Of a DNA stretch of 64,000 bases, positions 4,351 to 45,595 are shown in pieces. The position numbers and the translations under genes were made by a program. The DNA is from a virus. Taxonomy: Duplodnaviria > Caudoviricetes. The notes below the pieces were generated by a model, which was not told the origin of the DNA, searched no databases, and saw only the letters and a list, made by a program, of their open reading frames with translations. The stretch lies in the IMG/VR virus record IMGVR_UViG_3300021431_000107, positions 1 through 64,000 of that record; one strand, written 5' to 3'. Every line of letters starts with the position of its first letter. Position 1 is the first letter of the stretch.

Positions 4351-4374
4351 CCTCTATTATACGCATTGTAATTT

Positions 4375-5649
4375 TTACGAATTTTGAACACTTGCAAAGG
4401 CCCTTTCATTGAAGTTCTTCTTGTCTCTTAGAGCTCTAGCTATCGCTTGATCTATTGGAGCTGCTGACTTAAGATGAAAATAAAAAAGAGAATCGTAAGG
4501 TGTGTTCATCCTATCGATTCTCCCAGCCGCCTGAATAGTCATGCGATAACTATAGCTCTGTGAATAGAATATAATTGTATCTGTTGTGATGCAGTTCCAT
4601 CCTTCACAACCTGCAGCGTACTGAACACAGTAAACCCAAGCGTCTCCTTCTGGAAGAGGCTCATGCTTCTGTCCATTCCACTCGGCGATTTTGAGCGGTT
4701 CCTCTTTTCTTCCATCGGAGTCGATAGTAAGAAGCTTCAAGTTTCCAATTCGCTCTTTAATTAGATCAAGCTCATAAGTGTAATTGTAAAATATAATTAC
4801 TTTCTTCTGCGCTGTTACAATTCTCTCGACTGCATCGAGTCTACTTGGATCTGAGTTAACAACCTTCCTAAGAAGATAACAAAGCTTACCGGTTTCTTCA
4901 ATTGGCACATTGTCGTATGGATCCCATCTGTCTCTAAAAATTGTTCTGTACAGTATCTTGTCATACTGTATTTCACAGTTTTTATGAAACTGTTCTGCCT
5001 TCTTCTTGTACTTCATTCGAATAAGAATATCACGGCGATGATTCATAAGTTTCCCGGTATTTATGTATCTATCAATTTTCGGATAGTTTGTGTATGGGCT
5101 AAAGATACAATGCTGAGAATTAAAGTCAGATTTATTTCTATAAAACCCGTTTGCAATAAACACAGGAATGTAGTCACTCCATGTATCACCTGGAGTTGCG
5201 GAAAGCAGGATCCACTGATTCTTCCTAGTGATTTTGAGAAACGCTTTCGTCCAAGCACCGTAACCACTAACTCGCTGCTCATCAAATATGAAGAAAGCAC
5301 CATAGACATTCACATACTTCTTTATATTGTTCCATGAGTCAACAGTTACTTTTATGTTACAGATACTTTTATTTTGATCTTCACAAATCATGAACGGGAT
5401 GCATTCCTTAAGCCACTCTTTATCGTCTCGCTTCTTTGCGGTTGTTATGATGTAAAGATCCCGAGGAGCTGTTGGCGCTCCCCAAGATCCTTCGGAATTA
5501 ATTTCCATTTTCCCATCACAGACTTTCAAGTAATAGTAAGCAAGAGCAGTCCTAGATTTACCGGTGCCAACATCACCACAAAGAATTGCCCCATTCTTAA
5601 GTTTCTCAATTGCCTTAAGCTGATGAGAATATAGATCCATTTTAATCAC
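4375..5649 (-). CDS. SF2 (SNF2/DEAD-like) helicase
   Basis: GDVGTGKS Walker A, FIFDEQ Walker B, LLSATP, QAAGRIDR motif VI. Confidence 0.85.
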   Translation of the reverse strand: MIKMDLYSHQLKAIEKLKNGAILCGDVGTGKSRTALAYYYLKVCDGKMEINSEGSWGAPTAPRDLYIITTAKKRDDKEWLKECIPFMICEDQNKSICNIKVTVDSWNNIKKYVNVYGAFFIFDEQRVSGYGAWTKAFLKITRKNQWILLSATPGDTWSDYIPVFIANGFYRNKSDFNSQHCIFSPYTNYPKIDRYINTGKLMNHRRDILIRMKYKKKAEQFHKNCEIQYDKILYRTIFRDRWDPYDNVPIEETGKLCYLLRKVVNSDPSRLDAVERIVTAQKKVIIFYNYTYELDLIKERIGNLKLLTIDSDGRKEEPLKIAEWNGQKHEPLPEGDAWVYCVQYAAGCEGWNCITTDTIIFYSQSYSYRMTIQAAGRIDRMNTPYDSLFYFHLKSAAPIDQAIARALRDKKNFNERAFASVQNS

Positions 5650-6146
5650 CCTTCAAAAATGTTTTTATACTTATCTCTGATCGGATTTCCTCTAAACTGA
5701 TTCTCGGCTCTGATTTCGTCCTGCTCTTCCTGGCTCATAAGATGAGCAATCAGAGTGTCAAGATAGACAGTGACACCAGATCTCCCCATTCTTTCATAAG
5801 TAGATCCATGCACATGAATCTCAGCACCTTTGATCCAGGCGCTATCGAGATTTTGAACAGTAGCCTCGGTAAGAACAACTGCGTTTCCGTCAGGTGTAAT
5901 CATCGCGATATCCGGAGAGCCAAATCTATAGCTTACCTTAACATTCATGTACATCCTCGGACCTTCGTCCTCGTTTCTCGGTTCCTGTCTCCAAATAGAG
6001 ACTCCATCGTTGATCAGTTTCTGAGCAAGATCATGATCCTCAATCTCGATAGCGAACTGCCTGTTATCAGGACCGAACTTGCTACCTGCGAAATCTCTAG
6101 AAACCAGTCTTACATCTGCAAAATCCATATCAAATACTCGTGCCAT
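5646..6146 (-). CDS. Putative single-stranded DNA-binding protein
   Basis: Sits between helicase and polymerase; beta-rich with RDFAG...RQFAIEI and VTVYLDTL pattern typical of phage SSBs. Confidence 0.5.
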   Translation of the reverse strand: MARVFDMDFADVRLVSRDFAGSKFGPDNRQFAIEIEDHDLAQKLINDGVSIWRQEPRNEDEGPRMYMNVKVSYRFGSPDIAMITPDGNAVVLTEATVQNLDSAWIKGAEIHVHGSTYERMGRSGVTVYLDTLIAHLMSQEEQDEIRAENQFRGNPIRDKYKNIFEG

Positions 6147-6166
6147 AATAATTTTCTCCTTTCGTC

Positions 6167-10498: not shown

Positions 10499-10764
10499 AA
10501 AATGGCTGACATTTTCACGGAAAAAATATTTTTGAATTTTGAAGCAGCTTTTCTACTCTTTTTCAATATTTTTCATTTTTTAAAATAATCTACTAATAAG
10601 TTAAAAAATCCATTCAAAATTCAAAACGCGAAAACCCAGTATTTATGCGGGTTTGCGGGCTTTTTTCATTGAATCAAATTTTCGATTTTTAATTTTTGTG
10701 GGCAATATATTAAATCTTTTTTTGACCCACAAAAATCGAGGACTTCAATTTTGATTCAAAAATA
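10499..10764. other. Putative replication origin: AT-rich with nested inverted repeats
   Basis: Non-coding; IRs 10530-10543/10613-10626 (14 bp), 10692-10702/10726-10736 (11 bp), 10669-10678/10750-10759 (10 bp); directly upstream of the replisome gene. Confidence 0.5.
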
Positions 10765-11004
10765 TTAGCCCGTTTTGGACTCATTTTTTATCTCATTAAA
10801 GTAATCAACTTTTGGAAATTTTTCCAGCTGATAATGTACCGAAAGTCTCATACATTCAGACATTGAAAGACCAGCTTTTTCCGATAATTCCTGAAGCTCT
10901 TTCCACTCTTCATCGTTCATTCTAACCCGAATGGCATGAGCTTTTGCTTCATTTTGATTCTTTGGCGGACGACCTCTTTTACGCACCTTATTACTTTCGT
11001 TCAT
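10765..11004 (-). CDS. Ribbon-helix-helix DNA-binding protein with AT-hook-like RGRP
   Basis: RKRGRPPK...IRVRMNDEEWKELQELSEKAGLSMSECMR. Confidence 0.7.
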   Translation of the reverse strand: MNESNKVRKRGRPPKNQNEAKAHAIRVRMNDEEWKELQELSEKAGLSMSECMRLSVHYQLEKFPKVDYFNEIKNESKTG

Positions 11005-11050
11005 AGTGACTCATCCCCAATGCACTCGCCTCTTTTTCTTCCTATCTCTA

Positions 11051-11242
11051 TCATTCTCCTTTCTTTTTCTTTCCGAACCCAGTGAGAAGAGATCTCATGA
11101 AGCCTGCTCTAGTCATTTTATTTTGAGTAGACAGTTCAGTGAGTCTGTCCCATTCACCGGCAGTAAACCTGATAGTGAGCCTATGTTCTCGAATATCTTC
11201 AGGCCCTTTCACAGGTCTCCCACGTCTTCTTTTATTTTCCAT
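11051..11242 (-). CDS. Ribbon-helix-helix protein, paralog of the adjacent gene
   Basis: RRRGRPVK...LTIRFTAGEWDRLTELSTQNKMTRAGFMR; SD-led ATG at 11242. Confidence 0.65.
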   Translation of the reverse strand: MENKRRRGRPVKGPEDIREHRLTIRFTAGEWDRLTELSTQNKMTRAGFMRSLLTGFGKKKKGE

Positions 11243-11267
11243 CTTTCTCCTCCTTTCACGACAGCAT

Positions 11268-11834
11268 TCAAATATAATTCTCTGAAAGATACCCACACAT
11301 CTGAAGCCAAATCTCCACCTTTCTCTGGTCCCTATGAGACTTACGAAGAGGAAACGGCGACCCCTTTCCATTCCGTTGATACACCCTGTCAAGCCAAATT
11401 CCAATCTGCTGACGGACATAACCGGAACTAAAATTATCGTCCGTACATCTCATGAGATCAAGATTATCAATCATAATCCAGAACCATTTTGAAGCATCAG
11501 GTTCATCCCCTTCACCCATGATATCTATGTCGCATCTAAGCGACAAACCTATAAGCATCTCAAGAACTGAACACTTAATCCCAGGCGTGTAATAAAGGTC
11601 AGGAATATTGTTTTCATCCATATAAATCCACCGAAGCTTCTCTCCATCAAACGCCCTGTTTTCGTCCCTCTCAATAGACCATGTGAATTCGATTGAGTGA
11701 AGTTCATTAAGTAGTAGTGAGTAGTTATAATATGGTTCAGCATACCCATCTACTTTTTCAAGCAGCCATTGGTAATAGTCAAACTTTCTCCATCCAACTG
11801 ATGCCTTATCTTCTCTTCTACGAGTCATATTCAT
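11268..11834 (-). CDS. Phage protein of unknown function
   Basis: 188-aa ORF with AGGAGGTG SD; Trp-rich. Confidence 0.7.
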   Translation of the reverse strand: MNMTRRREDKASVGWRKFDYYQWLLEKVDGYAEPYYNYSLLLNELHSIEFTWSIERDENRAFDGEKLRWIYMDENNIPDLYYTPGIKCSVLEMLIGLSLRCDIDIMGEGDEPDASKWFWIMIDNLDLMRCTDDNFSSGYVRQQIGIWLDRVYQRNGKGSPFPLRKSHRDQRKVEIWLQMCGYLSENYI

Positions 11835-12716: not shown

Positions 12717-12756
12717 TTTGAACCTCCTCCCAAGTCCAATAAACCATCACAACAAT

Positions 12757-17164: not shown

Positions 17165-17437
17165 TTAGCACGAGCTTCTTTCGTCTAATTTGTACGTTTC
17201 ATACAGCTCCTTATACTGTTCGATAGCATCCATTGTTTCCTGGTTCAGACAGTAATTAAGTTGTTCTGTCAAGTTCTCTGCAGCTTTGAGCATTTTACCG
17301 AGATGTGACATAATCAAATTATATGCCTCATCAATAGACAGCATATTTTTGTTATACCCAATCCAGTAAACACGGCCCATTTCGTAATGCCACATGAGTC
17401 TTAACTTTTCGACTTGCGTTCTAATCCAGTTTTTCAT
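17165..17437 (-). CDS. Hypothetical protein in its own promoter-terminator cassette
   Basis: Motif at 17478, GGAGG SD, hairpin 17151-17177. Confidence 0.6.
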   Translation of the reverse strand: MKNWIRTQVEKLRLMWHYEMGRVYWIGYNKNMLSIDEAYNLIMSHLGKMLKAAENLTEQLNYCLNQETMDAIEQYKELYETYKLDERSSC

Positions 17438-17504
17438 AGATCCATCCTCCTTTTATTGAAACCATATAATCTGTTTCACTAAAGGCACTGCATTTTTTAC
17501 GAGT

Positions 17505-20852: not shown

Positions 20853-23800
20853 TTATTTGTTCCTTTCGTAAAGCATCAAATAAAGCATATAGCTTGCAAT
20901 AGAAGGCATTGGGAGCCTTATCATGCTCTTATCAATTTTGATTTGCTTCTCTTTCTTCTTTTCTTCAGCCATATTGTTCTCCTTTCTTGAAAACAAATCT
21001 ATAGTCTCACTATAAGAGCTGGAATTTTTACGAGAATCATCACTCATCCTGTTCACCATACGCACATTCATTACAATGAATTATTGGATGTTTCAACGCC
21101 TCTAATCCTAATCTATAGACCTCTGCTTTATCAACATAATCGGAACAATCTTTAGTACATGGACAATTACCTAAACCTTTCAATGTACAGCAATCAATAC
21201 TTGCTCCCATATCATGTTCACAATGATAATGAATGCAATCTGTTCTTATATTAGATTTATAATCACACTGACAATACATTATTCGACACCCCACAATATA
21301 TAATTCATTTACTCTTTTTCCATCATTAGCATGGCATCTGCACAATCACGGTAGTCGATTGGTTTGACTTCGGGCTGTGCTACCGATAATGTATCAATCG
21401 CACCCTGTCTACTGATTGAATCATCCGTCACTTCACCTCCGTATCAATTACCCGTCCACAATATTGGCGGATTTCTCAGTTTTATAGCAACTGTCGATGT
21501 TACGAAATCGAGAAAAAGAGAGCACCTGCAATAACTTCTACAGATGCTCTCATTTCGAGTTACTTATTCATGCTCATCCATATTTTCATGTTCTTTCCAT
21601 TCTTCAAATTCGTTCCAGTTACTTATGGACTCGAAAGCATAATCAGTATAAATTGTTCCTTTGTTAACAGGATGTGTAAGCATTGCCTTTTGTTCGTCCA
21701 GCTTGACTTTGGTTATACTGATCCCATCAATTAAGTTTCGTAGCTTATCGTTGTCATCAAGACACTTAAGTTTAAGATCTCTTACAACAGTTTTCGCCTT
21801 CTCTTCAGATGAGAACATACCAACCAAACATGGTAATACTCTCCACTCATATTCCTCGTCATCGTATATCCCATAACTAACAACCCATACATATCTCTCG
21901 TTTTCCATAGTTTCTCCTCCTATAGTGAAAATATGATCCATAAGTTTCTCATTATAGGAGCTGTTTATATTACGAAACCACCCATACTTCTTTATTTATA
22001 CTTTTATACTTCTTCATAATTTCCTTTACTCCAAGAACCTCTTTTGCCCTCTTATAGTCAAGACCACCTTCTACTGTGCTTGCCTTTTCAAGAACAATTG
22101 TATACCGGACAAGAGCACCCATTTCCTCACGAATCTCATCTACACTCTCATCTTTTGCGTGTTCATACGCTTCATGAACATTCTCAAAGGCGTTGCTAAC
22201 CTTTCCAAGTTCAATCATGATAGCCCTCTTTGAAATCTTGGTTTTTGGTTCTTCCCCTTCTTTAAACTTATAGTATCTCTCAGGTCTATAGTTTTTAAAG
22301 TTGTTTACTCCATAAAGTACAAGTGAAAGTTTGCTTTTCATAAATTAATACCTCCTAAATATTTAATTTCTTCATTTTGAGCACTGCTATCTTCTTCCTC
22401 TTCACCAGGCTCATCCTCGTCTCCAAGTTCCCTCATTTGACTCAGCATTCTATTGAGTTCCGATATAATAGTTGAAGTCATACTGCCATCTGCCAGAGAT
22501 TCAAGAACATCTATCACAATCTCTGAATCATAAGTTACATCGTTTCTATCACGAAACTTAAAATTGATAAGTAAGTCTCCTCCAGCTACTGGTCTATAAG
22601 ATATAAGGTAGTCTTCTTCTCCTTCAACAATATCGCTGTCTGCCAGCCATTTCTTTACAGCGTACTCAATAGTTTCCAAATATAATGCATGCGGTTCATC
22701 TGTAATCATTTCTGCTCCAATTCTCTTTACATACTAAGACACAGGGAAAGTCTGAAGATACCATTTTGAGAAGATAATTAGTATCAGTTTCACTAAGCTC
22801 TATATCATACCAGTCATAGTCGGAATCATTCGCTGTTGGAGACGCCATTACTGTTATCTCATTCCTGTTATCCCCTAAATACTCAAGACTTATTGTCATT
22901 AAATCAGCTTCATCCTGATACTTTTCTGGAAGGTATTTCTTTGGCCCAGTGAAATATAATGTTGTGGAACCATGATACAAATTAAAGTAAGTATCCTCGT
23001 ATTTGAATTCCTTTACATTAATCCCATCCGCCATAAGATCACTTCCTCCTATGTCTTAAATTGTGATTCCTCATTCTGCTGACTCTGTATCTGATATCGT
23101 CATCAATCATTTTGAGAGCAGATTTAGAATCTCTAACCAAATCAAGTTGCTCCTTGTAAGAACGGTACTTTTCACATGACGAGTGACACGCCATATGTCT
23201 ATCAGCACAATCCTTACAAGGAGCTATGATACTTACATGAACCGCTTTAGCATTAACCTTTATTTCTTTCCCTCGGTTAATACCTTCATCCATTACTTCT
23301 CCTTAAACTTATCAGCAATCGACGAGTAGATAGTGCCCACATTCTCAAGCTGATTGTTGTAGTTATCCAGAATCAAATCCATGTCGTCTTTAAGCTTCTC
23401 CATGATAAGGTCTTTGGCATCGTCCTTAACCTCCTCACGAAGCTCATGAATATCGATCTTCATGATCTGTTTCTTAAGTTCCTTCGAGACTTCTTTTGAA
23501 ATCTCAGAGTACCTATTTTGAACAGCATCACGAACCTGACGAGTTACATCATCGCGGATGGCTACGGTCGTATCATCTACAGCACGACGAACAGCAGCAG
23601 TTACTGCTTCATCTGCAGCATCACGAGCAGCACGATCAATGATAGCCTGAGAGACCTGAACCGAAGACTTATTCTTGAGATCCCGAACAGCAATCCCAAG
23701 CTTATCAGATACTCTGCCAATTTTGATACTGGATCTAATGCCGAAGAGTAACGCCACTCCTACTCCTGCAATCATACCCCATCCAATGAGATCTGCCTTC

Positions 23801-27489: not shown

Positions 27490-30400
27490 CTGATTCCTCC
27501 TTTAGAAGCTCAAAGCAATTAATAGTACCAACATACTCGATGAACTCAGTAATTGCATTAAGCTCTCCCACACTAACTGTCAGTTCATTGTTGCTACTAT
27601 GATACGAAATGCAAACAGCATCATCCTGGTGATTAACGTAACTATTATGTCCGTTCTCATCCACGAAAAGATTCACATAGAACAAATCACAATCAGTTCC
27701 TCTTGAAAGAATATAATACTGAGTTTTCGTATCTTCCTCGTATCCGTACTCTTTAAGCTCCCATCCGTATTCCTGAATGGCCTTGTATATTTCACGGCTG
27801 CATGCTCTTACCTCGTCTGTTAAGAATGGATATATTACTTCAAATTTATTCATTTTGAACTCTCCTCCTTCACAATCTCAAGCACAGTCTTACTGAAACT
27901 CTCATCAACCGTGTCAAGTGCCTGACCACAGTCAGAACACATGTACGTATGACTCCAGGCATACGGCCTACTACCTTGTTCATCTGTCACTCGCTCAAAC
28001 AGTACCGAACCGCACACAGGACATGTGAGATAGTAGTTTCCATCAAACTCTTTATTTTTATTCACAAGGATCGGTCTCTTAGGTGTGATACGCTTAACCG
28101 CTTCAATCGCAATCTCAAGAGCATCATAAGCCTTCTCTGAAATCTCAGGTTCCCAAGGCTCCGGTTCCTGGAGATGCATTAGCATAAGAATAGCCTCTTC
28201 ATTTGTCATTTTGAGCTCCTTTCCTTTCACTTTCTCTCGTAAGGTACTCCAAAACAAAAGGAGCACCTGTATCATTTACAGATGCCCCTGTCCCCGGTTA
28301 ATAAGTTACTTTTCGGAAGTCTCACTTACGACTTCTGAAACAGTCTCAGCAATCTCCGGAACCTTTTCCGCAATCTGGGGAACAGTTCCAGCTCCTCCGC
28401 CGGGAAGAACAATATCATCCTTTCCGAAGACCTTTCCGATGACGCCCATTGCCAGCGTCCCACCCAAGATCCCGTACACAGTACAGGCGATCTTAGAAGT
28501 GGCCGCCTTCTTGACGCCACGGACAGCCTTCTTAAAGAAGCCATCCTTCTTCTCAGCAGGAGTTTCCGGTTTATTGTTCTCCTGATTCTGGTTTTCCAGT
28601 TCCTGATCGTTGTTTCTGATTTCTTCATTTGCCATAATAAAAATCCTCCTTTTAAAATAAATGTCTTATTAACATGTCATTATATGCCTTGCATTTTTTA
28701 CGAATCTGTTGTTAAACAGAACGTTACGTAATGTGTAATCTAGTCACTATTTATCTTGAGCATGTCCGCATTTCCTCATCTGATAAAGCTGATACATGCT
28801 ACTCTTTCCAAGTCTCCTTGGCCCAAAGCTAATCTGAGCCATTGTCGTAGAAAATGCATCCTTTTCACTGATCTGATCAGCAAGTTTCTGAATCGAGCTA
28901 AGAGATGCAAATACTGCTGCCGCGTCTTTCATTCTTTCTCCTCTTCTTTCCATCCATTTTGAACCCAGTTTGGAGCCATCTTGTAAACCGTATACCCAAA
29001 GCCGCCACAAACATCACACTTTACGTCTTTATATGCAGCTTCATACACAAATCCAGAATCAGGTAAACCACTTGGATAGCCGTTATACTCAACCTTCACA
29101 TATCCACGTCCGTTGCATTTAGGGCATTCATGTGTTCTATTTCCTTTAATAGCAGTGAATATACTCGATAAAGTGGCTCCAGGACCGTATTTTTCGATCA
29201 TTTGCTTTATTGTATATGCTTCACTACATTTAGGTTCATACCATCCAATCATCTTATTCTCCTCCCGTTGTTTCAAAGCATCGTTTTGAGTAACTTAGTT
29301 GCTTCCTCGATTCCACGACATGTATAATCAAAGTCGTCACAGTTATCACATTTCCTCATCCTGCCTTTCAGTAATCCATTTATCAAATAGCTTTTCGCAT
29401 GAGTCACAAAGATTAATTTCCTTAGAATAAAGGCTTACTTGAGGATACTTAATGATTCTATAAGTAGGAATTTTTGCTGTTCCATGATTATTTGGTATTA
29501 CCGATCCGCATTTGTCACATACTTTTTTAATCATACGATTACCTCACTTCAAATCGTCGTCATCAGGGATCTGTCTAACTGTAGTTTTGGCCTTCTCAAG
29601 GAGCTTATCATGGTCGGCTAACTCCATTTTGAGATCGTCAATCTGTTCCTGAAGCCTCTCGATGTACGCTGCTGTCTCTGAAGGCACTGCTGGATCGCTT
29701 CTCTTTATGTGATTTAAAAAGTTTTTCCAGTTTCTACCCTGAAAATTGATGGATTTTGCCATATTTTTCACCATCCTTTCTTAAGATCCGGGATAGAATC
29801 AGCAAAGTCAGCACCTTCAAACCGATAAATCACCCTATCATCAGAAAGAGCCTCTTTAATTTTTCTTGCACGATAAGAAACACGCTTAAAAAATCCATCT
29901 GACGGAACCCTTTCGTTAGCTTTAACGAACCTTCTGCAGTTACAAACAGGACAAGTGTACGCATATCCTGTAGGTTCCCATGATCCAGACGTATTCATGA
30001 AGCCAATCGGACGAAATTCAGACTCTTTTCCTCGTATGAGAGAGTCGCAATGCCCGCAAACGACCTCAAATCTCCTCTGAAAGTGCCTTCCATTGCCATT
30101 TTTAAGTGTTCTCATCCTCTTTTTCCTCCTTATTCACGCTGTTTTCAGTACATCTTGTTCTACATAGTCTATTCGTATCGAATAAATACAGATCTTCAAT
30201 GTACAAATACTGACAACTCATGCATTTTTCTTTTTCAATCGCCTCTTTTTCATCATCCAACGCCTGTCGCCACCTTGCCAAACCTTGAAATATGCGTTCT
30301 CCAGCCCAAATTCCCTTCATTTTGAGCATCAGAACGGTGTTTTTCTCTAAATTTCTTGAGTTTTAGCCCATCTTGTACTGTTGAAACCACATCAATTAGT

Positions 30401-31827: not shown

Positions 31828-31863
31828 AAGTTTCTCCTTTCTCTTCTGTGTGTACTTGTTTCC

Positions 31864-31995
31864 TAAAAAAAAGAAGAAGGATTATTTACTTCGTCAAACC
31901 TTTCGCATCTTTTCCGGCATTGAGAACTTTCCAAAACGTTTTCACGTGTCTCAACCCTGATGCAAGTTCAGGTTATTAGAAGTAATATAATCCCT
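31864..31995 (-). ncRNA. Candidate rod-shaped phage sRNA (about 130 nt)
   Basis: Promoter motif 32000-32024; arms 31979-31999 and 31873-31892 pair (20 bp, one G-U, one bulge); inner stems AACCU/AGGUU, UUGCAUC/GAUGCGA, UUGAGA/UCUCAA, ACGU-GAAA-ACGU; followed by a U-tract. Confidence 0.6.
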
Positions 31996-32069
31996 CTTCA
32001 CTATACCCTCTGTAGTTTTTACGAGTTGCTGTACACTGACACGTTCTCTTTGTTCACGTATAGTTCATG

Positions 32070-34239: not shown

Positions 34240-34250
34240 TTTGAACCTCC

Positions 34251-34499
34251 TTATCGATAAAGCCTAAAGATCCTGAGTTCCTCATCTGAAAACCCATCAA
34301 GATCTCCAACATCCAGTAAGATAAGCACCAAATCACGAATACTAAAAGACCCACGAGTAATCTTGTTGTTAAGAAGATTCACTGAGATGCCAAGAATCTT
34401 TGCCACGTCTTCTTTTGAATAATTCTGCATTTCCATTATCTTCTTAATGAGTAGTGTATCTGGTCTGTCACTAAATCTCTGAAACGTTGATTCGGTCAT
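34251..34499 (-). CDS. XRE-like HTH protein
   Basis: SKEDVAKILGISVNLLNNKITRG. Confidence 0.6.
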   Translation of the reverse strand: MTESTFQRFSDRPDTLLIKKIMEMQNYSKEDVAKILGISVNLLNNKITRGSFSIRDLVLILLDVGDLDGFSDEELRIFRLYR

Positions 34500-34583: not shown

Positions 34584-36007
34584 CTACTTAAGAAGTCCCA
34601 GATCGGCTAAGATCTGTGTGTAGGACTCGCCGTTATTAAACCTACGATCAACCTCAATCTGCTCATGACGAGTAAGAGGTCTTCTCGATAATACGTGTCT
34701 GCCCAGTCTGGTATCATAGAAGTCGACCAGCCTTCTTGTATCTTCAGCTCTTGTCTGCCGGTACTTAAACGCTTTATTACCAAGCGAAGTAACGGCTCCA
34801 ATGATAGCCATAGATTCAATAGGATGCTCAATCCCCCATTTTACCAGGTCATTGGCTTTCTGCTTTACTTTATCGAGCTTCTCCTTCCATTTCCGTTTCT
34901 GAGCCTCCATTTTGAAGTCATTAATGTCAACGGTTTTATTCTCCTCCATTTTTGATCTCCTTTCTTGAAACATCTAATAGTTCCATTATAGGAGTTGTTT
35001 TTGTTACGAGTTAACGATTATCGATCCTCTTTCCAGTGCAAAGTCTTTAGCCATTTTGAAGTCTCTTTCCGACAGAACATAGTGATTATTTTCCAGTCCG
35101 AAGATTGCTCCAAGACGACAGGCAACTTTGTCAATGCACTTAGGATAGATAGCACTCATGAACAGAGCTTCTCCTTTACTATCAGGTTTTACAAGAACTT
35201 CATGTGTCTCTTCAAGAAAACCAATCATGATATCGTCGTTGGAAGTTTTCTTAACCTGAGTAATAAGTCCATCTCTTTTGCAAGCAGATACAATACCTGC
35301 GATACAAAGTGCTGCTCCACCAATAATAGCTGCATAATCTTCAAATGTTCTTTTCATACCATCTTCTCCTTTCTCCTGTGCATATTAAGCCAGACATACA
35401 TCTGTGTCCGCAATCGCGCTAGAAGGGTAAGCGTCATTTTCGGCAAAGGTAATCTCCATCGCTTTTCCGAAAGGCGCACGATAAATGCGTATGGTATCGA
35501 ATACCCAATCTCGCTTAAAGGCATCATATGGGCAATTCTCTCTAGCTTCCTTTATAGCAAGATTAGCCGCTTCTTCTGATGGAAATATGCCGAACAAGTA
35601 TGTTTCTGTATCATCGTCCTTGATTCCGAATGGAAAACTATCGATAGTAACAACAAAAACATCTTTCATCATTTTGATCTTCTCCTTTTCATTCTCTCCA
35701 GAAATATAAGAGTCATTTAACATCACGGTTATACCCTATCTTCACAACAATACAGCAACCGTTCTCTTATAATTCGATTCATATAACTCATTTCTTCAAA
35801 CGAGGGGGATGATTGTTTTGATGCAATTTCCAGCGATTTCACGTACTCCTCCATAACATCATGATATTCTGCATATGAATTATTCTCTAAACGATTCCGC
35901 ACTTGTTTTTCAGTGGCTGGTATGTAAAAATCTTCTCTCATTGAAGCAATGCATCCACCGTCACCGCAGTAACAGGTACAACATGGTTTATCATTTGTTC
36001 CGCACAT
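34584..36007 (-). CDS. Small genes 34584-34949 (TM), 35004-35357 (TM), 35385-35672, 35729-36007 (Cys-rich)
   Basis: SD-led ORFs; promoter motif at 34985. Confidence 0.55.
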
Positions 36008-36794: not shown

Positions 36795-37139
36795 TTTGAA
36801 TCCTCCCTTTTGAAATACGTTGCTTTGTGATATATGAGAGAAAAAAAGAAGGAGTCCATGTTAAGACTCCTTTTTCCTCCTTTCTTTAAATAACTCACTG
36901 CCAAATCCGACGGTCATGATGACCACGAACAGCATGCCAACAGCTGCTCGAAACCAGAATACGAATGGCTCGGTAACGTACTCATCAGCCCATCTGCCAA
37001 TTTCCGTCCCGAATGCCATCATAAACAGGCTCCACATAGTTAACATAAAAGTTCTGTTCATATCTTCGTCCTCCTTGATATAAGTTGATTTAATCTATCA
37101 TTATAGGAACTGAATTTTTTACGATTAGTTCACTACGTT

Positions 37140-37648
37140 CACACGGTCAAACTCGCAGACTCGTTTAACACGAAAAAGAAAGAGGCAACACTCATTACAT
37201 TCGTAAACGCCTATAAGAAAAGAAAGAGGCATTGAAGCCTCTCTCCGAAATGCTCTTTTATCGATTTTATCCACGCTCGCTGAACAATATATAAAGTCCA
37301 ACGGCGATGAGAATACATCCTAATAAAGTCATTCCGCAGATTCCTCCTTTGCCTCTTCTCTTTTAAGCGTTACGTACCGCTTCTTGAACGGGTTTTTAAT
37401 GAGTTTACGAGTTTCCTCAATCTCCTTCTCCAAATGTTTGGAGTCTGCAGTCGAGTATCCTGTAATATAACCCAGGACCCACTGTGCAAATCCAAATACG
37501 AGAATTCCGATGATACCTGCTACATTTCTCATCTTTCGTCTCCTTTCATAAAAACGTGTTAACGTATCCATTATAGGAGTTGATTTTTTTACGAAGATGT
37601 TCACTCCGCTCACACGGTCAAACTCGCAGACTCGTTTAACACGAAAAA
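37140..37648. repeat. 38-bp identical direct repeat (37140-37177 and 37611-37648), with variants at about 38668-38702 and 43725-43760
   Basis: cacacggtcaaactcgcagactcgtttaacacgaaaaa occurs twice, each time just upstream of a promoter motif. Confidence 0.85.
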
Positions 37649-38341
37649 AGAAAAAGCGACGCTCACTATCGTTCATAAGGTCTTTGAAAAAGAAAAGCCC
37701 TGGAAGTGCATAATAGCTACTCCCAGAGCCTTTATATTACCAGAGATCGTGAGCATCTTTAATAAGCTCAATCCAGTCCTCCATGTTAATAGTTCCCTGT
37801 TTCTCAAGTTTATCGTGTATCAAGATACGCAGCGTCTTGGACTCGTCGCAGTACTTGATGGCTTTCTGATAGTCATCGTTCGTGCGCCAGTACATAGCAA
37901 GAACGCTAAGTTCTAATACCACAAAAATGATAATTATAGTTCCTAACATATTGATTTCCTCCTTTAAAATAATCTATATTAAAAAAGAAGCTCACAATCT
38001 TCTCATAATATGCATTGTAAAGTTTACGATACGATAGGCAAAAATAGGAGCAGCTGTACAATTTGCTGCTCCGTCCTCCTTTCACATCATCCTTTGGATC
38101 TCTTCAATCTGATCCATCATCCTCTTGTTACTTCCGAGAAACATCTCGGTTAAATCGCTGAGTTCCTGACTGATATTATCCAGTCTCTGCTGGACATCAA
38201 TCATGTGCTCACGTTTAATCATAGAGTTGCTCTTTTTCACCTGATTTGATTTCTTCAACATTTTTAAATCCTCCTTATAGAACATAATGTGCTTATATCT
38301 CTATAATAGGAGGTGTAAATATTACGAATTGCTATATCTCG

Positions 38342-38622
38342 AAAGAAAAAAAACAGATTGTAGAGAATCCGTTCAACTTCCTTTTCCTTCAAAAGCTTAA
38401 TCTTTTTCAAGATCCTTCATCAATCTACAATAACCATAGGTGATTAGCCCTTAGGTCACTGTAATCAACAGTCTGCCTGGTAATATCCATTTTATCGATC
38501 GTCACATCGTCATATGCGGATATCTTACATTTTCGGTGCATCCAACCGCGACCTCGTTCTAGCTCACAGATTTGACTAATAATCTGCCGGTCCTTAACAT
38601 TCATATGATGAATATTACCTTT
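38342..38622 (-). ncRNA. Candidate multi-stem structured ncRNA (about 280 nt)
   Basis: Promoter motif 38629-38653, terminal U8 tract; stems 38608-38619/38479-38490 (12 bp), CAUAUG pair, GCAGAUU/AAUCUGU, CGGU/ACCG, ACUGU/ACAGU, 38424-38431/38357-38364 (8 bp), GAUCUU-GAAA-AAGAUU; only a weak-SD 59-codon ORF. Confidence 0.55.
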
Positions 38623-38740
38623 ATCTTCATTATAAGTGATGTAATTTTTACGATTGCTCAGTACCCTCGCACGGTCAAACTCGTTCCTCGTTTAACACGA
38701 AAATAAGAAGCCACTGTATATTTCACAGTGGCCTCATCTA

Positions 38741-38917
38741 TCACTCCTTTCTTTTCTTGAAACAGTATCCGATAATGGCTCCAATAACCAGTACCGGAAA
38801 CAGAATGGCAAAGATAGTTAAAGCAATCGGCCAAATGGCAGCCAAGATGCCTACAACAAGCGGCAGTGCAATCAGCGCCATAAGAGCGAGTGCCATAACA
38901 ATGATCATCTTAATCAT
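38741..38917 (-). CDS. 58-aa hydrophobic membrane protein (not in ORF track)
   Basis: GGAGGAG SD; MIKMIIVMALALMALIALPLVVGILAAIWPIALTIFAILFPVLVIGAIIGYCFKKRKE; own promoter and terminator. Confidence 0.7.
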   Translation of the reverse strand: MIKMIIVMALALMALIALPLVVGILAAIWPIALTIFAILFPVLVIGAIIGYCFKKRKE

Positions 38918-39032
38918 AATTGTCTCCTCCTTTATTTTGAGTAGTTATCGTTTACATTTCTTTCCATTATAGGAACTGTTTTTATTTCGAAAGAGAGAAG
39001 CCACTGTTTCATTTACAGTAGCTTCATGTCTT

Positions 39033-39134
39033 TTAAAACATCATACTTGCAACCCCATTGATAGTTGCGTTTGCAATACAAATCTGGGCGAAGGTTCCTC
39101 CAAAGAACCATCCACCGATATATCCAAACAACAT
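39033..39134 (-). CDS. 33-aa hydrophobic peptide (not in ORF track)
   Basis: GGAGG SD; MLFGYIGGWFFGGTFAQICIANATINGVASMMF; promoter motif at 39168. Confidence 0.55.
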   Translation of the reverse strand: MLFGYIGGWFFGGTFAQICIANATINGVASMMF

Positions 39135-42100
39135 CTCAATTCCTCCTTTTTATTGGGTTTTATTTCTATAATAGGAGGTGTAAATTTTACGAAAAAAGAG
39201 GACCAAGATTTCTCTTGATCCCCCAAATTGTGCTATGATCTGTTCCCCTGTATTATGTCGATTGCAGAAGCAACGAGCAATGCCACAGCGAGAACAATCT
39301 CAACAATCTCGGTCTTTCTCATCTTCGTCCTCCTTTTCCTTTTGAGTAATGCCACGTTTATTAAGTCTCCTTTCTACCGCCCGATCAATGGCGATGTCCT
39401 GCTGTTTCTTCGATACCTGGCCTCCAAGCCAACCAAGTATCAAGCCAAGAATAGTAAGACCCATTCCGCCATTAATAAGCTCTTTAAATTTTTCTTTCAT
39501 AATTTTCCTCCTTTTTAAAAACGTGATTACTATTTCACTATACGGCTTGAAAAAAATACGAGAGCCACTGTATTATCCACAGCAGCTCCCATTTTGAGTT
39601 AGAGTAACTTTTCCGCGATATAATCTGCCATGTCCAAAGTGTTCATTTCTTTATAGAAGTTTTCACGAAAGTCAATCACCGTTTCAGGTATATGCGTGTT
39701 ATTCATGACTGTCATAGCTTCCGGAAAGTTGTCTTCTATGGTCTTAAGTGTTGAATTTGATCCGATCGCTCCAACGTCATCAATCACATCATGGATGTTA
39801 CGCATCACTTTAAATTTGTGACTAGTAACACCGACCGTGTAACCGATTCCTGCTGTTACTGCTCCGATTAAAATTGCTCCACCATAAACAGTCAACTCTA
39901 CCGTATGATCGTCAACCCACTTCCTGATTTTGCCTTTTTCTTTCTTATTTTCCATAAATATCTCCTTTCATTTTAAGATATCGCTTACAAGTTCCTCACT
40001 ATAAGGACTGTATTTAATGCGAGCTCGTTTCACTCGCCATCTCTTACTAAGTTCGAGAAGAAAAGAACAGAAGCCACTGTATTATATACAGCAGCCTCTG
40101 TTGTCAAATTATTTGATACTAAGTTTAGGATTCTGACCGAGTCCCATCTTGCTCACAAACCATCCATTCCGATCCGCATAGATTGCAAGACACGTACCTG
40201 CGAATCCAAGACCCGCTACTGCAAGTCTCGACCCGTTCTCAGTTACGATCTTTACGAGTTCACCTTTCTGACGCTTCTTGGCTGCGGTCGCTTCGTTTTC
40301 AACTTTCTCCTTTTCGAGTTTCAGATTCTCCTCTTCAAGGTCCAGCCTCTTCTGATCCATCTGAAGCTTAGAATCACTCATTTCCCTTTCGGAATCCAGT
40401 TTCTTCTGCTCCATCTCGATCTTAGAAGAGCTAATCTCCTTTTCAGAGTCCATCCGTCTCTCTTCAAGCTCAAGTTTCTCACGATCGACCTCAATCTTTT
40501 CGCGTTCGATATCGGCTTTCTCGCTATCCGTTACCATCTTCATGAGAGTGTCAAGATCTTTGATAGCGTTGTATCTATCGTCGGATCCCAGCTCCATGTG
40601 CTTGATCTTTGCAAGATCGTTATTAATGATTTCGTTTACAAGGATTTTTGTTTCTACAGTCATACAAATTCCTCCTTATTACAAATCAAACAATTTGCTT
40701 CACTATACGACTTGTTTTTTATGCGAATTTGGAATACAATAAACTTGCAAAACACCAAAGAGGGTCTACTTTTCGAGTTTAATCTTGAGATAGATCCTCT
40801 TCCTTTTTGGAAGCTTAGACAGGTCCTCCGATACTTCAATTCTATACGTATCCTTTTCAATATCGGTCTTGTCGATAACAAGCGTTCCAGCATTTGGTGA
40901 TTTAATGATATGCCAAACCGATACAAAGATCGATCCAAAGATATTCCCTAAAATAAAAGCTCCAACATAAAACCAAATCATTTTGAGACCTCCTTTCATA
41001 AAAAAAAGAGACCGCATTTAAGCGATCCCTCTTACTCTTTTCCACTCGTAACGTCCATACATAGATTCATGTACTCCATCGACATAAATCTCGTAACCGC
41101 AGCCATACGGACTCATTGACTTCAGTAAGAACAGATGATCAAGCTCCTTCTTTGGAACAAGACCTCTAAACATAACGATATCTTCTTTATCGACTCTATA
41201 AAGATGCCTCGTCCAGTTTTCAAGATCGTCGATTAACTGTTCCATCATACAGTCCTTTTTGTCCAGGACTACAGCTACGTAGTTAAATCTCAAATCGTAC
41301 ATAAAAATCTCCTTTGAAATAAAGTTATAAGTTTCTATTATACGAAGTGGTTTTATTACGAAAAAAAAGAAGCACCTGTATTTCTACAGATGCTTCTGAG
41401 TACCTAGTTTTCTCTTTCAAGTCTGTTTTTCAGAATGGAGAGAGATCTAATGCTTTCATTGAATTTCTTAGCCTTCTGTTCACAGTTCTCATCCATTGCC
41501 CGATGCATAAGTTTCGTATAGTTCTGGATAAGACTGTTCACGAACTCTAATGTCTCAAAAGTTTCTACATTTTTACTCATGTCATTCCTCCTATAATATA
41601 ACTTGATTTACTAGTTCCTATTATAGGAGTTGTAATTTTTTCGCATTACCATCTCACATCATCTTCGTCTCTGTCATAGTAAGGTCTACCGGTTCTAAGT
41701 TCAAACTCGTAGTCCTCACCGGCTTGTATATCCCCTGCAGTTATCTCCATGGCACATTTACCGCACATATTACCTTCTGGCCACTCCTCATCGTAATCTG
41801 TGTCATAGTCACTAAACTCATCATTGTACATTTCCCTTGCTTCGTCAACATCAAATCGTTTCCCACAATGAATACACTTTGCCATTTTGAGACCTCCTTT
41901 TATAGATGTATAACTGGTTCTATAAAGAAGATATCATAGAAAAAGAAAAGGGACAAGACTTGACTTTCTCATCCCTTTTCAGTATAATGCGCGCTGCTTT
42001 TTTAGTAGTTAAACTTATTTAATCCCTTAAAGAACTTCCAATCCTTACTGAATCCCTTTGGCTTCTCAAGACTCCCAGACAAGATAGAGAACGCATAAAA

Positions 42101-45100
42101 CGTCATTTCTACCATTTTCCTGTGATTAATTCTATCTATAAGTCTAGAATGCTTCACAACAAACTGGTATACAGCTTCATCCGTTACTCTTACGTCAGGA
42201 AAATCTGCGTAATTTGTCAACTCGTACCTAAGAGCTTTAATGATTTTACCCATAAGTTTCCTCCTTTTTAAAAACATAACATTTTGCATCATTATACGAA
42301 TTGAATTTATTACGATACAGCTCAGTCCATTCTCGTACCAAACGAAAAAGAAATAGCCCCTGTTAAGAGGCCATCTCTCCTATAATTTCATGATACATCT
42401 CATCGAGTTCTTTAAATTCAGATTCAGACACATAGCATCTAAACTGCATGCCAACGAGATCGTCTTTTCTCTTGATGAAACGAATGCTATAAGCCACACG
42501 AAGTACCTCGCATACCTTAGAGAATCGTTCGATTTCATCATGAGTTGCAAGAACGAAATCCCACACGATGCACCGTCTTTTACTCTGCTTAATCATGTCT
42601 CTTCTCCCTTCAAGTTAGAACAATTTGTATCATTATATCCGGTGTAAATAGTTCGAAGGTATTTTGAGAAAAAAAAGAAGACGCAGATTACTCTGCATCC
42701 TCATGAGCCGAACGGATAATCCGGCGAATTGAATCGTCGCTATATCCGCAAGACTCACAAAGACCTGCGTAGTAATCCACGTCCTCTTCGAACCCCTCAT
42801 GGCCGAGGGTACGACCATAGAGATTCTCAGCAGCGACCCTAAGCCGCAATCTGAGGTTACTCATACTTGTCACCTCCTTTCCCTCGGTATATATTAGTAG
42901 GTTCCTATACTATGCATTGTAAATTTTACGATACGATAGTAAAAACAAGAAGCCACTGTAATAGCTACAGCAGCCTCTGTTTTGAGTTATTTAATCAATA
43001 CTTTCACGTAAGGAATTCCATCGTCATCGCCAATTTCGATCCACCATTTATCGACCTCAGCAGTATCATATCCGGAGAAGGTTCTTGCAATCTTATCTGC
43101 TGGAAATGTTCCAATCCAGCACGTATGATTAGCCAGGATTATGTCTTTCTCCACGATCGATATTACTAAGTCCTTATCTTTCAATGTTACCACAAGATCC
43201 TTAAGTTTCATAACGTTTCCTCCTTCATTTAAGTATGTTAATAACTTATCATTATATGTATTGTTTTTATTACGAAAAAAAAGAAGCGTCGCTCATGTTA
43301 TTCGCTACGTCCTCAAAAGAAAAAGAGGCCCTGTAAAAGCAGCCTCTTGATGCAGTCAAATAGCATACTTGTCAAGCAGTCTCTTTAAGTCCTCCTTTTC
43401 CCTCTGAAGCTCACCAATCTGCTTCTCAAGGCTATTGATTTCCATGCTCTTCTTAACATTCTCACGGCGATAATATGAGACATCATTGTCACGATCCTGC
43501 AGTCTGATACGAAGTCCTTCAAGAAACCTATTGATCTCAACAATCTCATTGAAATCATCAGCTTCTCCGTCTCCGTAAGTCAGCAGCATAACGTGCTTCT
43601 TGATCTCCTCAAACATATCAACCTGAGCAGTGTTATTCAGTTCTTCCATTTTGAATCTCCTTTCTTAAATCAATTGATTGCTTCATTAAAGCAGTTGTTT
43701 TTATTTCGAACACGCTCAGTCCCCTCGCACCGCCAAACTCTCTTTGTTCGTTTAGCTGAAAAGAAAGAGGCAGATGTTACTCTGCCCCTATGGAACTTAC
43801 TCGAATGATGATAAATCCCATACATGATACGGGGAAATATGCATCTCAATGCCAAGTTCTTCCTTGAAGTAGTTTTCAATTACTTCTGTTATTTTGTCGT
43901 TCTTGGCAAGAGGTAATGCTATTTCGCTGTATTCTTTATATAGTTTCAATACCTCTTCATCTGTAAGTCCGGTAGGTAAAGTAACATAGCCCCTTACTTC
44001 TTCTAGTGATTTCTTAATTACTTTGTTCAACTTCTTCTCTAGCTTTTCAGTAATTTTAACTCCTCCAGGATAGCAGTTGTGTAACCTCATAAAAATCACT
44101 CCTTTCACTATAAGGGCTGTATAAAATGCGAAAAAGAAAGAGCCCTTGTTAGGACTCAATCTCTTCCAGCTGAATTTCATTTAGCTTTAATTCTTCCATT
44201 TTCATATGAACTTCACGAATCTCTTCCTCTTCTGCATTACAGAAGTCGTATGTTGCATGCACCGTGCATAGACTTTCATATTCTATTGTAAGTTTACTTA
44301 TATAGCTATGAACGATATCACAGTGTTTACCCTTCCCTAGCGTTATAAGCGCATCCATTAGATCTGGCGAAGTCATTTCACTTCCCATAATTTCTCTTTT
44401 TTGTGCGTTTTTACATGCTTCAAAGTGTGAAGTATAAACTTTCACTATAGCGTTCATAGCTTTTTCAATCGAATCGCATACAATAACGATAGCCATTTCG
44501 TGTGCATGAATATTCCAACTTGGTCTGTCCACCTTAGAGTACATCGTTACTTGATACATCATATGATTTTCTCCTTTCGTTAGCTAATGTAGCTGTTTCA
44601 CTATAGCCACTGTATAAAATTCGAAAAAGAGAACCAGTTGCAATAACTGATTCTCTAAGTAATCATGGGTATATCATGTCCACGAATGCCGACTGAATAA
44701 GTTTACCCATCGTTGCTTTGTCGTCTAACCATAACATAATATGATCACTCCTTTCTATTTTAGGGACTGTATTTTATGCGAAAAGAAAGACCAGTTGCAA
44801 TAACTGATCCTTCCATTTTGAAAGTTATCCCCATCTAGTCCATACAGTATCTCCATAGGGAGATGTTACCTCTTCAAGGCCCCATTTCTTGCGGAGCTTG
44901 TTCCAAAAGAGTCCAGGCATTTCCACTCTGATAAGTACGATGTCATATACATTCTTTCCAGTCGCCGATTCAACTATCGATGATTGCTCGACGCCGGTTA
45001 CTTTTCCACCGCACTCTTCAAGAGCTTTAGCTACCTCTTTTACGTTAGTTCCATGTCCGAACATAAGTGTCCTTGTTTCTGTTTTCAGCTCCCTAAAGAT

Positions 45101-45595
45101 ATTGTTAATAAACGCCATAGTAATTCCTCCTTTCGCTTTTCATTAAAGGAGTTGTATAAATTGCGAAAAAGAAAGAGCACCTGTAATAGATGCTCCTCTT
45201 GCATGATATTATCGTTCCAACAGTTTATTTAATTCAGTCTCCTCGACATAGTAAGATATTTTATAGCTCTCTCCCCATCCTTTCAAAACACATCTGTAAG
45301 TCGCTTCATAAGTTTCGCAGTCATTGTCATTTGTAACATTGAGCTCACTAACTTTAGATACGGCAACACTATCAGTAATTTTTTTATAGTGTTGCTTAAT
45401 TATTTCTTTAGCGTTCTCAAAGTTATCACCTACACCAATAACATCTTTACCATAGTCCTTATAAGTGTCTTCATATATGTCTTCTTCCATCCAGTACTTC
45501 ACTACTAAATATACTTTATTCATACATCTTCTCCTTTCATTAAAAAGCTAATTGGTTTCACTATAAGCACTGTATAAAATTCGAGGACCGACCAT

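Follow-up and report, generated by a model that had tools for sequence, protein, structure and literature searches.

Phages P23-45 and crAss phi14:2 carry a phage-specific motif 5' of their early genes, which has been assigned to the phage RNA polymerase partly by co-occurrence, and in the model for both phages a virion-carried enzyme starts early transcription. P23-45 has a virion polymerase fused to the tape measure protein (gp96) as well as a non-virion polymerase (gp64). How two-barrel polymerases of the type of SPbeta YonO find their promoters is less clear, the promoter and any need for a cofactor having been left unresolved in the YonO paper. Here we examine a stretch of 64,000 nucleotides (hereafter, the window), which comprises positions 1-64,000 of the 82,740-bp Caudoviricetes record IMGVR_UViG_3300021431_000107 from a gut metagenome (G000 in our genome comparisons). 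Nearly all genes of the window lie on the minus strand, and they include one for a single-chain two-barrel RNA polymerase of 1028 amino acids (aa; 310..3396, minus strand). A motif of about 30 bp recurs upstream of the early genes, and we consider it probable that this motif is the promoter class of the phage's own polymerase, which would both read and fire it.

A first-pass annotation of the window had reported 30 co-oriented copies of the motif, with a near-invariant TCG, A at position 5, CA at positions 13-14 and a -10-like hexamer at a fixed distance, none carrying TTGACA and none lying in the tail module. When both strands were scanned with the core pattern TCGNANNNNNNNCANNNNNTANNNT (TCG-N-A-N7-CA-N5-TA-N3-T), the window gave 27 exact matches (25 on the minus strand), against a chance level for both strands together of 0.66 on average and 3 at most (100 dinucleotide-preserving shuffles). 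Five further minus-strand sites with one core mismatch bring the total to 30. A 30-column weight matrix, applied with leave-one-out scoring to the whole 82,740-bp genome, divided these sites, all on the minus strand between 4356 and 45584, into 29 that score 21-38 bits and one marginal copy (21481-21505, 8 bits). In the same scan no other minus-strand position exceeded 8 bits, the plus strand gave a single 9-bit match, and the structural half of the genome (45.6-82.7 kb) held no site at all; in shuffled genomes the best scores were about 9 bits on average. The reported number and orientation of copies and their absence from the tail module were thus borne out, as 29 strong sites and one marginal one, and of the scans of genome and relatives that the annotation had proposed, the weight-matrix scan showed the array to be unique in the genome and pattern scans showed the motif to be family-wide.

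The consensus reads TCGyA-N7-CA-N3-C-N-TATAAT-GARA. Column counts over the 30 sites agree with the annotated invariant positions, TCG, A5 and C13A14 being invariant or nearly so. The TCGyA block is followed by six or seven A/T-rich bases without G and then by (t)ACA, and G never occurs at positions 4-10. The hexamer is close to TATAAT, with base counts of T 30, A 27, T 28, A 26, A/G 21/9 and T 29, and at position 18 (-14 in sigma-promoter count) 25 of the 30 sites have C, not the G of a TGn element. Positions 26-29, after the hexamer, are almost all purines, a feature that the annotation had not mentioned. The four bases 5' of TCG are unconserved in the 30 sites, and there is hence neither a -35 element nor a TGn extended -10; no conservation is seen in the columns in which a -35 would lie, and the only sigma-A-type 10/12 match among the sites, at 34985, is there by chance. 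The motif has no internal complementarity.

The polymerase belongs to phrog_4291 (E = 5e-285) and carries GADFDGD at aa 596-602, in which DFDGD (aa 598-602) corresponds to the DxDGD signature; D598, D600, G601 and D602 are invariant in 35 homologues. It has three N-terminal helix-turn-helix (HTH) units and one C-terminal unit, and HTH is all that Pfam detects in it, one match resembling sigma-70 region 4 at about aa 160-182 and another lying at aa 996-1027. A sequence search of the PDB returned nothing meaningful, and fold search alone worked. An AlphaFold model built from 35 homologues (mean predicted local distance difference test, pLDDT, 82; predicted template modelling score, pTM, 0.71) was matched by Foldseek to QDE-1 (E = 3e-8), P74-26 gp62, the PDB entry 'Phage P32 gp64' and RDR2, at probability 1.0, and more weakly to P23-45 gp96, the crAss phi14:2 gp66 virion polymerase and cellular beta-prime subunits. 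On this model the protein is a two-barrel RNA polymerase, for which DNA-dependent, promoter-specific RNA synthesis is predicted. More than 2,800 homologues were found at E <= 1e-20, mostly annotated only as 'HTH DNA-binding protein'; the enzyme is carried by more than 2,800 metagenomic contigs and by roughly 250 genomes of isolates. The same family had already been proposed in silico, through HHpred, as a polymerase and as the signature gene of a supercluster of Streptomyces BI, Arthrobacter, Gordonia, Rhodococcus, Lactococcus 1706-like and Faecalibacterium phages (10.1101/842583), in a preprint from which the word 'promoter' is absent.

Motif and polymerase were tracked across polymerase carriers and bacterial genomes. 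At the DNA level, megablast of 36-46 kb against a phage collection found no relatives, and a polymerase-protein search of viral contigs found only three fragments, whereas the DNA pattern scan was far more productive. In IMG/VR it recovered ten records with multiple matches. With a looser core pattern, co-oriented sites number 10-18 in the complete records and 4-13 in the fragmentary ones, and a polymerase gene is present, at 41-46% protein identity, in all five of the motif genomes tested. The polymerase (34-41% identity) also led to isolated phages, which were then scanned for the motif. Strict-pattern matches numbered 12 in Rhodococcus phage ReqiPoco6, 10 in Streptomyces phage Scarif, 7 in Gordonia phage Duffington, 22 in Arthrobacter phage Qui and 3 in Curtobacterium phage Yotsuba. 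The core ACA-N5-TATART-RRRA was found 4 times in Arthrobacter phage Mudcat, 8 times each in Lactococcus phages P092 and CHPC971 and 9 times in Lactococcus phage 1706, and these four phages have a degenerate TCG block, with 1706 showing a yyRCA variant of the upstream block. Of 11 polymerase-bearing isolated or assembled phages, 10 thus have the full or core motif, and the annotation's private, non-sigma-A promoter class extends to the whole phage family. Matches in relatives lie nearly all on the coding strand, in the same register and geometry as here. Over 108 sites from six genomes TCG, A5, C13A14, T20A21T22 and T25 are each conserved at 90% or more; the polymerases of motif-bearing genomes share only 37-46% identity, their hosts include both Actinobacteria and Firmicutes, and phage GC content ranges from 34 to 59%.

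Lachnospiraceae and Butyribacter genomes (2-3.6 Mb) gave only 1-2 strict matches each, which is chance level, the phage-like contigs of one metagenome-assembled genome apart. The Butyribacter matches, single and at chance level, were rejected as a sign of a host or prophage. Two contigs of that one assembled genome, from an uncultured Lachnospiraceae bacterium (CAMVKW010000024.1, C13), hold 7 and 3 strict matches, a binning-level hint that the Firmicutes branch of the phage family infects animal-gut Lachnospiraceae.

Whatever reads the upstream blocks must be conserved in all motif-bearing genomes, and conserved proteins were therefore compared. When all G000 proteins were searched against six genomes with tblastn, those kept were the structural block, a primase-polymerase, a helicase, two nucleases, an HNH endonuclease, the polymerase and two small uncharacterised proteins (85 and 110 aa); not one early-region protein was common to G000 and these six genomes. 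The polymerase is the only conserved protein with predicted DNA-reading modules. The first-pass annotation had offered two alternatives, namely that host sigma-A polymerase together with a phage activator reads the motif and leads to expression of the phage polymerase, or that the HTH-bearing phage polymerase reads the motif itself. This comparison favours the second, since the polymerase tracks the motif and no other conserved reader was found; co-occurrence of motif and polymerase among relatives also served to assign the P23-45 polymerase promoters.

The first alternative, in which host sigma-A would use TATAAT as its -10 element, a conserved phage factor at TCGyA...ACA would replace the -35 contact and the phage polymerase would serve late genes only, is weakened by the same searches, and we now think it unlikely. 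No candidate factor is conserved with the motif. The activator that had been suggested, the 118-aa phrog_11237 protein (45596-45952), is absent from the complete genomes G001 and G006 and from ReqiPoco6 and 1706 even with the family profile, and among motif-bearing genomes was found only in G004 and, weakly, in G008; like an 81-aa protein encoded beside it, it is missing from most motif-bearing genomes. Profiles for MotA and AsiA (PF09158, PF09010) had no match at E <= 10. A profile search of the phage proteins for Sigma70_r2, which very divergent sigma factors may escape, was negative, and sigma region-4-like matches all fall inside the polymerase, bar one 82-aa HTH protein at 34251-34499; a phage sigma factor was on these grounds rejected as the reader. 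In each of the six genomes compared, the coding strand has no more strong canonical sigma-A promoters than chance would give, and in the complete genomes G001 and G008 it has none. Because these two phages have no strong canonical promoter from which the factor could be made first, their time-zero transcription must start at the motif, and an activator that needs prior synthesis is therefore ruled out there. The factor would, moreover, have to contact host sigma in both Actinobacteria and Firmicutes.

The geometry of the transcripts also bears on the sigma-A alternative. A sigma-70-type open complex starts transcription about 7 nt after the -10 hexamer, and the test named in the first-pass annotation was for starts 6-8 nt downstream of the hexamer. 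Among 96 units of G000, G001, G004, G006, G008 and 1706 that are led by a Shine-Dalgarno (SD) sequence, there are 10-11, spread over all six genomes, in which only 0-4 nt separate the hexamer from the SD and the start codon lies 14-21 nt after the hexamer; a start 7 nt downstream would cut these SDs off. Transcription therefore would start right after the hexamer and not 6-8 nt downstream. At site 44107, just downstream of a terminator, TATAGT is followed by the SD GAAAGGAG (44106..44099) and 8 nt later by ATG; as only 16 nt separate hexamer and start codon, the RNA would start at or next to the first base after the hexamer. Five units of 1706 likewise have AGAAAGAAGGT, a near-perfect lactococcal SD, directly after TATAGT.

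Two further lines of evidence come from an RNA unit and from the composition of the initial transcript. The unit headed by site 32000 would yield a rod-like RNA of about 130 nt (31862..31999, minus strand; minimum free energy -44.6 kcal/mol, z = -5.9), in which a 13-bp terminal helix pairs the first 13 bases after TATAGT with the 13 bases before a U8 tract. None of 200 shuffled sequences folds as well, and for the helix to form, the bases directly after the hexamer need to be transcribed. In ReqiPoco6, where GAGA directly follows the hexamer as it does here, positions +5 to +8 after the hexamer are CCCC at 10 of 12 sites, which is a poor sigma-type start. From the closeness of the SDs, the rod-like RNA and the ReqiPoco6 CCCC together, all of them indirect evidence, we infer a start at the purine directly after the hexamer. 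The start expected 6-8 nt downstream is thus probably a wrong prediction, and of the annotated -10-like hexamer at a fixed distance, the sequence and the spacing stood while a role as a -10 element probably did not.

A second unit, 38335-38628, would give an RNA of about 280-290 nt (z = -3.4), the first 9 nt of which are unpaired in the predicted fold. Like the leader that follows site 4356 (z only -1.3), it was set aside as unusable evidence for the start site. The units 31862-31999 and 38335-38628 are candidate phage small RNAs.

Several points weigh against reading of the motif by the phage polymerase, and some of them speak for sigma-A with a phage factor. The hexamer matches the sigma-A -10 consensus perfectly, and its bases are conserved in the pattern that sigma region 2 imposes, most strongly at T1, A2 and T6. 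The conserved block near -30 is where the MotA box sits in T4 middle promoters, and a sigma-A-driven first operon, encoding an HTH protein and two uncharacterised proteins, precedes the array. The units close with classical intrinsic terminators of hairpin and U-tract, which are tuned to bacterial polymerase. YonO, the one characterised relative, is a late-gene enzyme without HTH modules, and its one start serves a single late operon. In Actinobacteria, -10-only promoters are common, and host polymerase could fire the motif sites of actinophage relatives. Neither motif pattern was matched in MT835495, a gut scaffold that bears the polymerase. The phage is probably temperate, with an intact integrase, and reading of the motif by the polymerase alone would not account for the first polymerase at prophage induction; read-through from the sigma-A promoter at 46577 and weak host recognition of site 4356 are guesses. 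Virion association of the polymerase, finally, would rest on one GenBank label (1706) and a shared sequence tag.

A probably temperate lifestyle is also what would favour a different account, in which host polymerase fires -10-only promoters and the upstream block is the operator of a phage repressor, as with SPBRE and MrpR. SPBRE is repeated in the early promoter regions of a Bacillus prophage that encodes a two-barrel polymerase and is bound by the master repressor, and -10-only promoters do work in Actinobacteria. We nonetheless find this account improbable. MrpR is a recombinase-fold protein that has lost its catalytic residues, whereas the only tyrosine-recombinase-like protein here keeps them all, and SPBRE/MrpR, which the SPbeta context had brought up, was rejected as the leading interpretation. 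The motif occurs equally in relatives described as lytic and lacking integrase and repressor (cluster CC; virulent 1706), and SPBRE numbers about 10 copies of 15 bp, as opposed to 29 copies of 30 bp in a fixed promoter-like register. Firmicutes sigma-A promoters, moreover, normally need a -35 or TGn element, both absent here, and the geometry of the ribosome-binding sites again speaks against a sigma-type start. That the motif might be no promoter at all, and instead a cassette-boundary or recombination sequence or an RNA-level processing or translation signal like the start-associated sequences of cluster K mycobacteriophages, would suit its position beside small, rapidly exchanged cassettes whose content varies among relatives while the motif stays constant, and is very hard to reconcile with its placement after terminators and 16-62 nt before SD-led genes, its presence before a ReqiPoco6 tRNA and before ORF-free RNA units that end in U-tracts, its strict strand bias, its AT-rich melting box followed by purines and its lack of internal complementarity.

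Under the preferred reading, in which the phage polymerase reads and fires the motif, a single phage-specific class of promoters of about 30 bp would head almost every early or middle transcription unit, as well as two units without open reading frames (ORFs) and, at 4356, the nuclease-polymerase operon that continues into the structural genes. The HTH modules of the polymerase would read the upstream blocks TCGyA (-25 to -21) and ACA (-14 to -12), TATAAT would serve as the melting box at -6 to -1, and transcription would start at the G or A right after it. As the polymerase gene lies behind a motif promoter, its expression would feed back on itself; since the polymerase would be reading its own promoter, the first molecules must come from elsewhere. 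We propose that the polymerase is packed into the virion by way of an N-terminal tag and enters with the DNA, and given such a virion-borne enzyme, early transcription could begin without a host-read promoter. Host sigma-A polymerase would be left with the divergent promoters of the integrase/Cro-like switch at 46.4-46.6 kb. The full combination, that is, a sigma-free two-barrel polymerase with sigma-4-like HTH readers that uses a 30-bp TATAAT promoter and starts right after the hexamer, is virion-borne through its tag and makes transcription almost fully independent of the host, and has kept the enzyme-promoter pair nearly unchanged across Actinobacteria and Firmicutes, is a tentative proposal, which we hold somewhat more apt to fail in one of its parts than to stand whole.

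The tag in question is a disordered segment at aa 36-66 of the polymerase (window 3199-3291), H-x-G...SGR[YF]xxGSGxxPxQ or, in fuller form, YLxHxG...SGR[YF]xxGSGxxPxQH. It is invariant in the 35 homologues and present in all seven genomes examined, including ReqiPoco6 and 1706. It also starts three head-module proteins (genome 70724-71827, 68015-68947 and 67269-68009), for which no PHROG family match was found, and is a candidate capsid-targeting or protease-site signal. The 1706 homologue, orf75, bears the label 'structural protein' in GenBank; two further 1706 proteins outside the structural block are also labelled structural, which suggests an experimental basis behind the labels. Those of ReqiPoco6 and ReqiPepy6 copy the orf75 label. 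The contiguity of the polymerase operon with the late genes is a further pointer to the virion. We judge packaging of the polymerase into the virion and its injection with the DNA to be about evenly poised.

All sites but two (32000 and 38629) lie 16-62 nt 5' of an SD-led start codon, and these two head ORF-free units that close in U-tracts. Followed in the direction of transcription, with weight-matrix scores in brackets, the minus-strand array of putative promoters begins at 45560..45584 (31.9 bits), which overlaps the terminator 45608..45583 of the sigma-A-driven first operon. It continues with 45142..45166 (34.2 bits; gene 45118..44825), 44757..44781 (30.4 bits), where a TAAAAT hexamer is directly followed by AGAAAGGAG and a short ORF, 44600..44624 (32.4 bits; gene 44562..44149), 44107..44131 (32.1 bits; 97-aa gene with ATG at 44090), 43685..43709 (32.4 bits; gene 43649..43356), 43251..43275 (33.1 bits; ORF starting near 43211), 42907..42931 (25.7 bits; gene 42864..42688, with a terminator upstream), 42632..42656 (27.3 bits; ORF starting near 42591), 42291..42315 (33.3 bits; gene 42253..42002), 41620..41644 (31.5 bits; gene 41580..41404), which has GCG for TCG, and 41337..41361 (32.2 bits; gene 41302..41018), with terminator 41397..41368 directly upstream.

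Further along are 40702..40726 (32.7 bits; gene 40663..40109), 39998..40022 (32.2 bits; gene 39955..39599), 39537..39561 (27.9 bits; gene 39500..39300), overlapped by the upstream terminator, 39168..39192 (33.9 bits; small gene 39134..39033), with a terminator hairpin directly upstream, 38966..38990 (38.1 bits; gene 38917..38741) and 38629..38653 (30.0 bits), whose unit has no convincing ORF and folds with z = -3.4. These are followed by 38303..38327 (33.3 bits; gene 38261..38082), 38005..38029 (28.3 bits; gene 37949..37737), 37570..37594 (33.3 bits; gene 37532..37329), 37100..37124 (35.5 bits; gene 37061..36861), 34985..35009 (36.7 bits; gene 34949..34584), 32000..32024 (29.9 bits), which heads the rod-like RNA, 28679..28703 (31.1 bits; gene 28635..28306) and 21951..21975 (38.8 bits; gene 21908..21564). 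The marginal copy, 21481..21505, is degenerate, with T25 changed to A and no purine run, and its leave-one-out score of 8.1 bits is within the range of shuffled sequence. The remaining three are 21009..21033 (33.8 bits), with an SD and ATG about 40 nt downstream, 17478..17502 (34.0 bits), 40 nt 5' of the 90-aa gene 17437..17165, and 4356..4380 (35.9 bits).

Terminator-like hairpins with a T-run are enriched in 36-48.2 kb (21 observed vs 6.3 expected), many of them just 5' of motif sites. With hairpins before and SD-led genes after the sites, the early region therefore forms a string of one- or two-gene units, each laid out as terminator, promoter, ribosome-binding site and gene. Six of the terminators (38707-38735, 38997-39025, 39558-39592, 40066-40102, 41368-41397 and 42948-42978) are alike not only in shape but also in sequence, namely GCTRCTGT, a loop, ACAGTGGCTTCT and a T-run. 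Either each cassette was duplicated along with its terminator, or the phage polymerase responds to a terminator of specific sequence.

Upstream of the array, the motif-free first operon (45596..46394, minus strand) encodes an XRE-type HTH protein (46394..46194, 66 aa), the 81-aa protein (phrog_6058) and the 118-aa protein (phrog_11237). It is headed by TTGACG-17-TATAAT (46549..46577, minus strand; 11/12 match), the only strong canonical sigma-A promoter on the coding strand of this phage. A divergent canonical promoter, TTGACA-17-TAAAAT (46444..46472, plus strand; 11/12 match), points toward a tyrosine integrase (46625..47842, plus strand; Pfam PF00589, PF22022), and host sigma-A use appears limited to these divergent promoters at 46.4-46.6 kb. 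In an alignment to the XerC-like structure 4a8e the integrase keeps the catalytic R, K, HxxR, H and Y. Its N-terminal zinc ribbon lies at aa 3-26, ahead of the core-binding and catalytic domains. In G001, a short stretch of similar sequence occurs just before the first motif site.

At the other end of the array, site 4356 lies 62 nt 5' of a 96-aa endonuclease gene, which is followed by genes for a DUF2800 nuclease, the polymerase and an 85-aa protein, so that this site does point into a nuclease-polymerase operon, as had been annotated. A motif site occupies the same place, 5' of the homologue of the 96-aa gene, in G001, G004, G006 and G008, and in ReqiPoco6 the strict-pattern site 71139 heads a larger right-end block that contains this homologue. 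The first 18 bases of the record (window 1-18) recur as its last 18 (genome 82723-82740); because of this overlap the polymerase operon runs directly into the structural genes, and in G001, an assembly with direct terminal repeats, polymerase operon and late genes are contiguous. The assembly thus closes on itself, as a circle or a concatemer junction. A cos or pac region probably lies in the roughly 300 bp that separate the 85-aa gene from the first late gene; in ReqiPoco6 the corresponding place holds a 3' cos overhang. Downstream of site 4356, the leader (4290-4355) shows a possible hairpin from the second transcribed base and then a U-rich tract, and its G006 equivalent looks similar; it may be an attenuator or a 5' stabiliser that gates the polymerase and late operon. 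Outside the window, the large terminase appears to be in pieces (genome 68959-70723), with a 127-aa ORF whose match to terminase profiles is confined to their C-terminal part, a 113-aa ORF upstream and a 758-bp stretch in which a crude gene caller found no ORF. The fragmentation could reflect an intron, an intein or a frameshift.

In ReqiPoco6, one motif site directly precedes a tRNA, and two sites near 42.8-43.1 kb precede no annotated gene. Across 40.9-50.3 kb of that genome, 10 of 12 motif sites are followed by the leader GAGACCCCTAYGAAAGGA, with an ATG 5-9 nt later. In the existing annotation, gp042, gp049 and gp063 start at an ATG inside this leader and gp044 and gp066 inside the motif itself, and these five annotated starts are probably misplaced.

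Phage-polymerase-specific promoters, two-barrel virion polymerases and the in silico identification of this polymerase family are already known. The motif, its link with the enzyme, its conservation across phyla and the start geometry were undescribed in the literature that we searched, outside which lay the reports on phage 1706 (2008) and on Rhodococcus equi phages (2011), so that an earlier mention is possible. The motif family offers a testable case, with a candidate promoter sharply defined over 30 bp, natural variants that number more than 100, an enzyme whose DNA-reading modules can be seen and culturable hosts (Lactococcus, Streptomyces, Gordonia and Arthrobacter). If our interpretation is true, this would be the first promoter for a very large protein family, would call for re-annotation of hundreds of SEA-PHAGES genomes and would explain their lack of recognisable host promoters. 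It would also provide a compact polymerase-promoter pair that works across Gram-positive phyla. If the full combination held as well, the pair would be an orthogonal expression system that is portable and indifferent to host phylum, and it would show in a living system how a minimal relative of cellular polymerases recognises promoters.

Compared with described systems, the motif is like SPBRE/MrpR in that repeated elements occur in the early promoter regions of a prophage. It differs in that the SPBRE operator measures 15 bp, has about 10 sites and binds a repressor whose recombinase fold is catalytically dead, whereas the unit here is 30 bp long, keeps a fixed promoter register, occurs also in lytic relatives and accompanies an intact recombinase. 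With T4 middle promoters it shares a good -10-like hexamer, the lack of a -35 element and a conserved box near -30; unlike them, it has no MotA or AsiA homologue and no other factor conserved with it, and its geometry argues against a sigma-type start. The promoters of T7, T3 and SP6 are likewise long (23-30 bp), nearly invariant, strand-specific and present in many copies genome-wide, and they too combine an upstream recognition block with a TATA-type melting box just ahead of the start and with a transcript that is purine-rich at its beginning (GGGAGA in T7, GARA here). The polymerase families are unrelated, and the likeness, which in our phage involves a predicted start, is architectural.

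SPbeta YonO, to which the phage polymerase is likened by the description of YonO, its own fold matches being QDE-1, P23-45/P74-26 and crAss, is also a single-chain DFDGD two-barrel polymerase of a temperate Firmicutes phage. The analogy with YonO drawn in the first-pass annotation holds for site 4356, whose long operon into the structural genes parallels the single late operon of YonO, and fails for the other 28, which are early and middle sites. HTH modules are absent from YonO, which uses one start and is not known in the virion, unlike the enzyme described here with its HTH modules and about 29 putative sites. N4, crAss-like phages and P23-45 have a packaged and injected polymerase, as we infer for this phage, and P23-45 gp96, the PDB entry 'Phage P32 gp64', P74-26 gp62 and crAss phi14:2 gp66 belong by Foldseek to the same enzyme fold class. 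In contrast to P23-45 and crAss, the polymerase here, as known from sequence and model, has HTH modules of its own and no fusion to the tape measure, and the motif that it would read, conserved in phages of two host phyla, includes a TATAAT box like that of sigma promoters.

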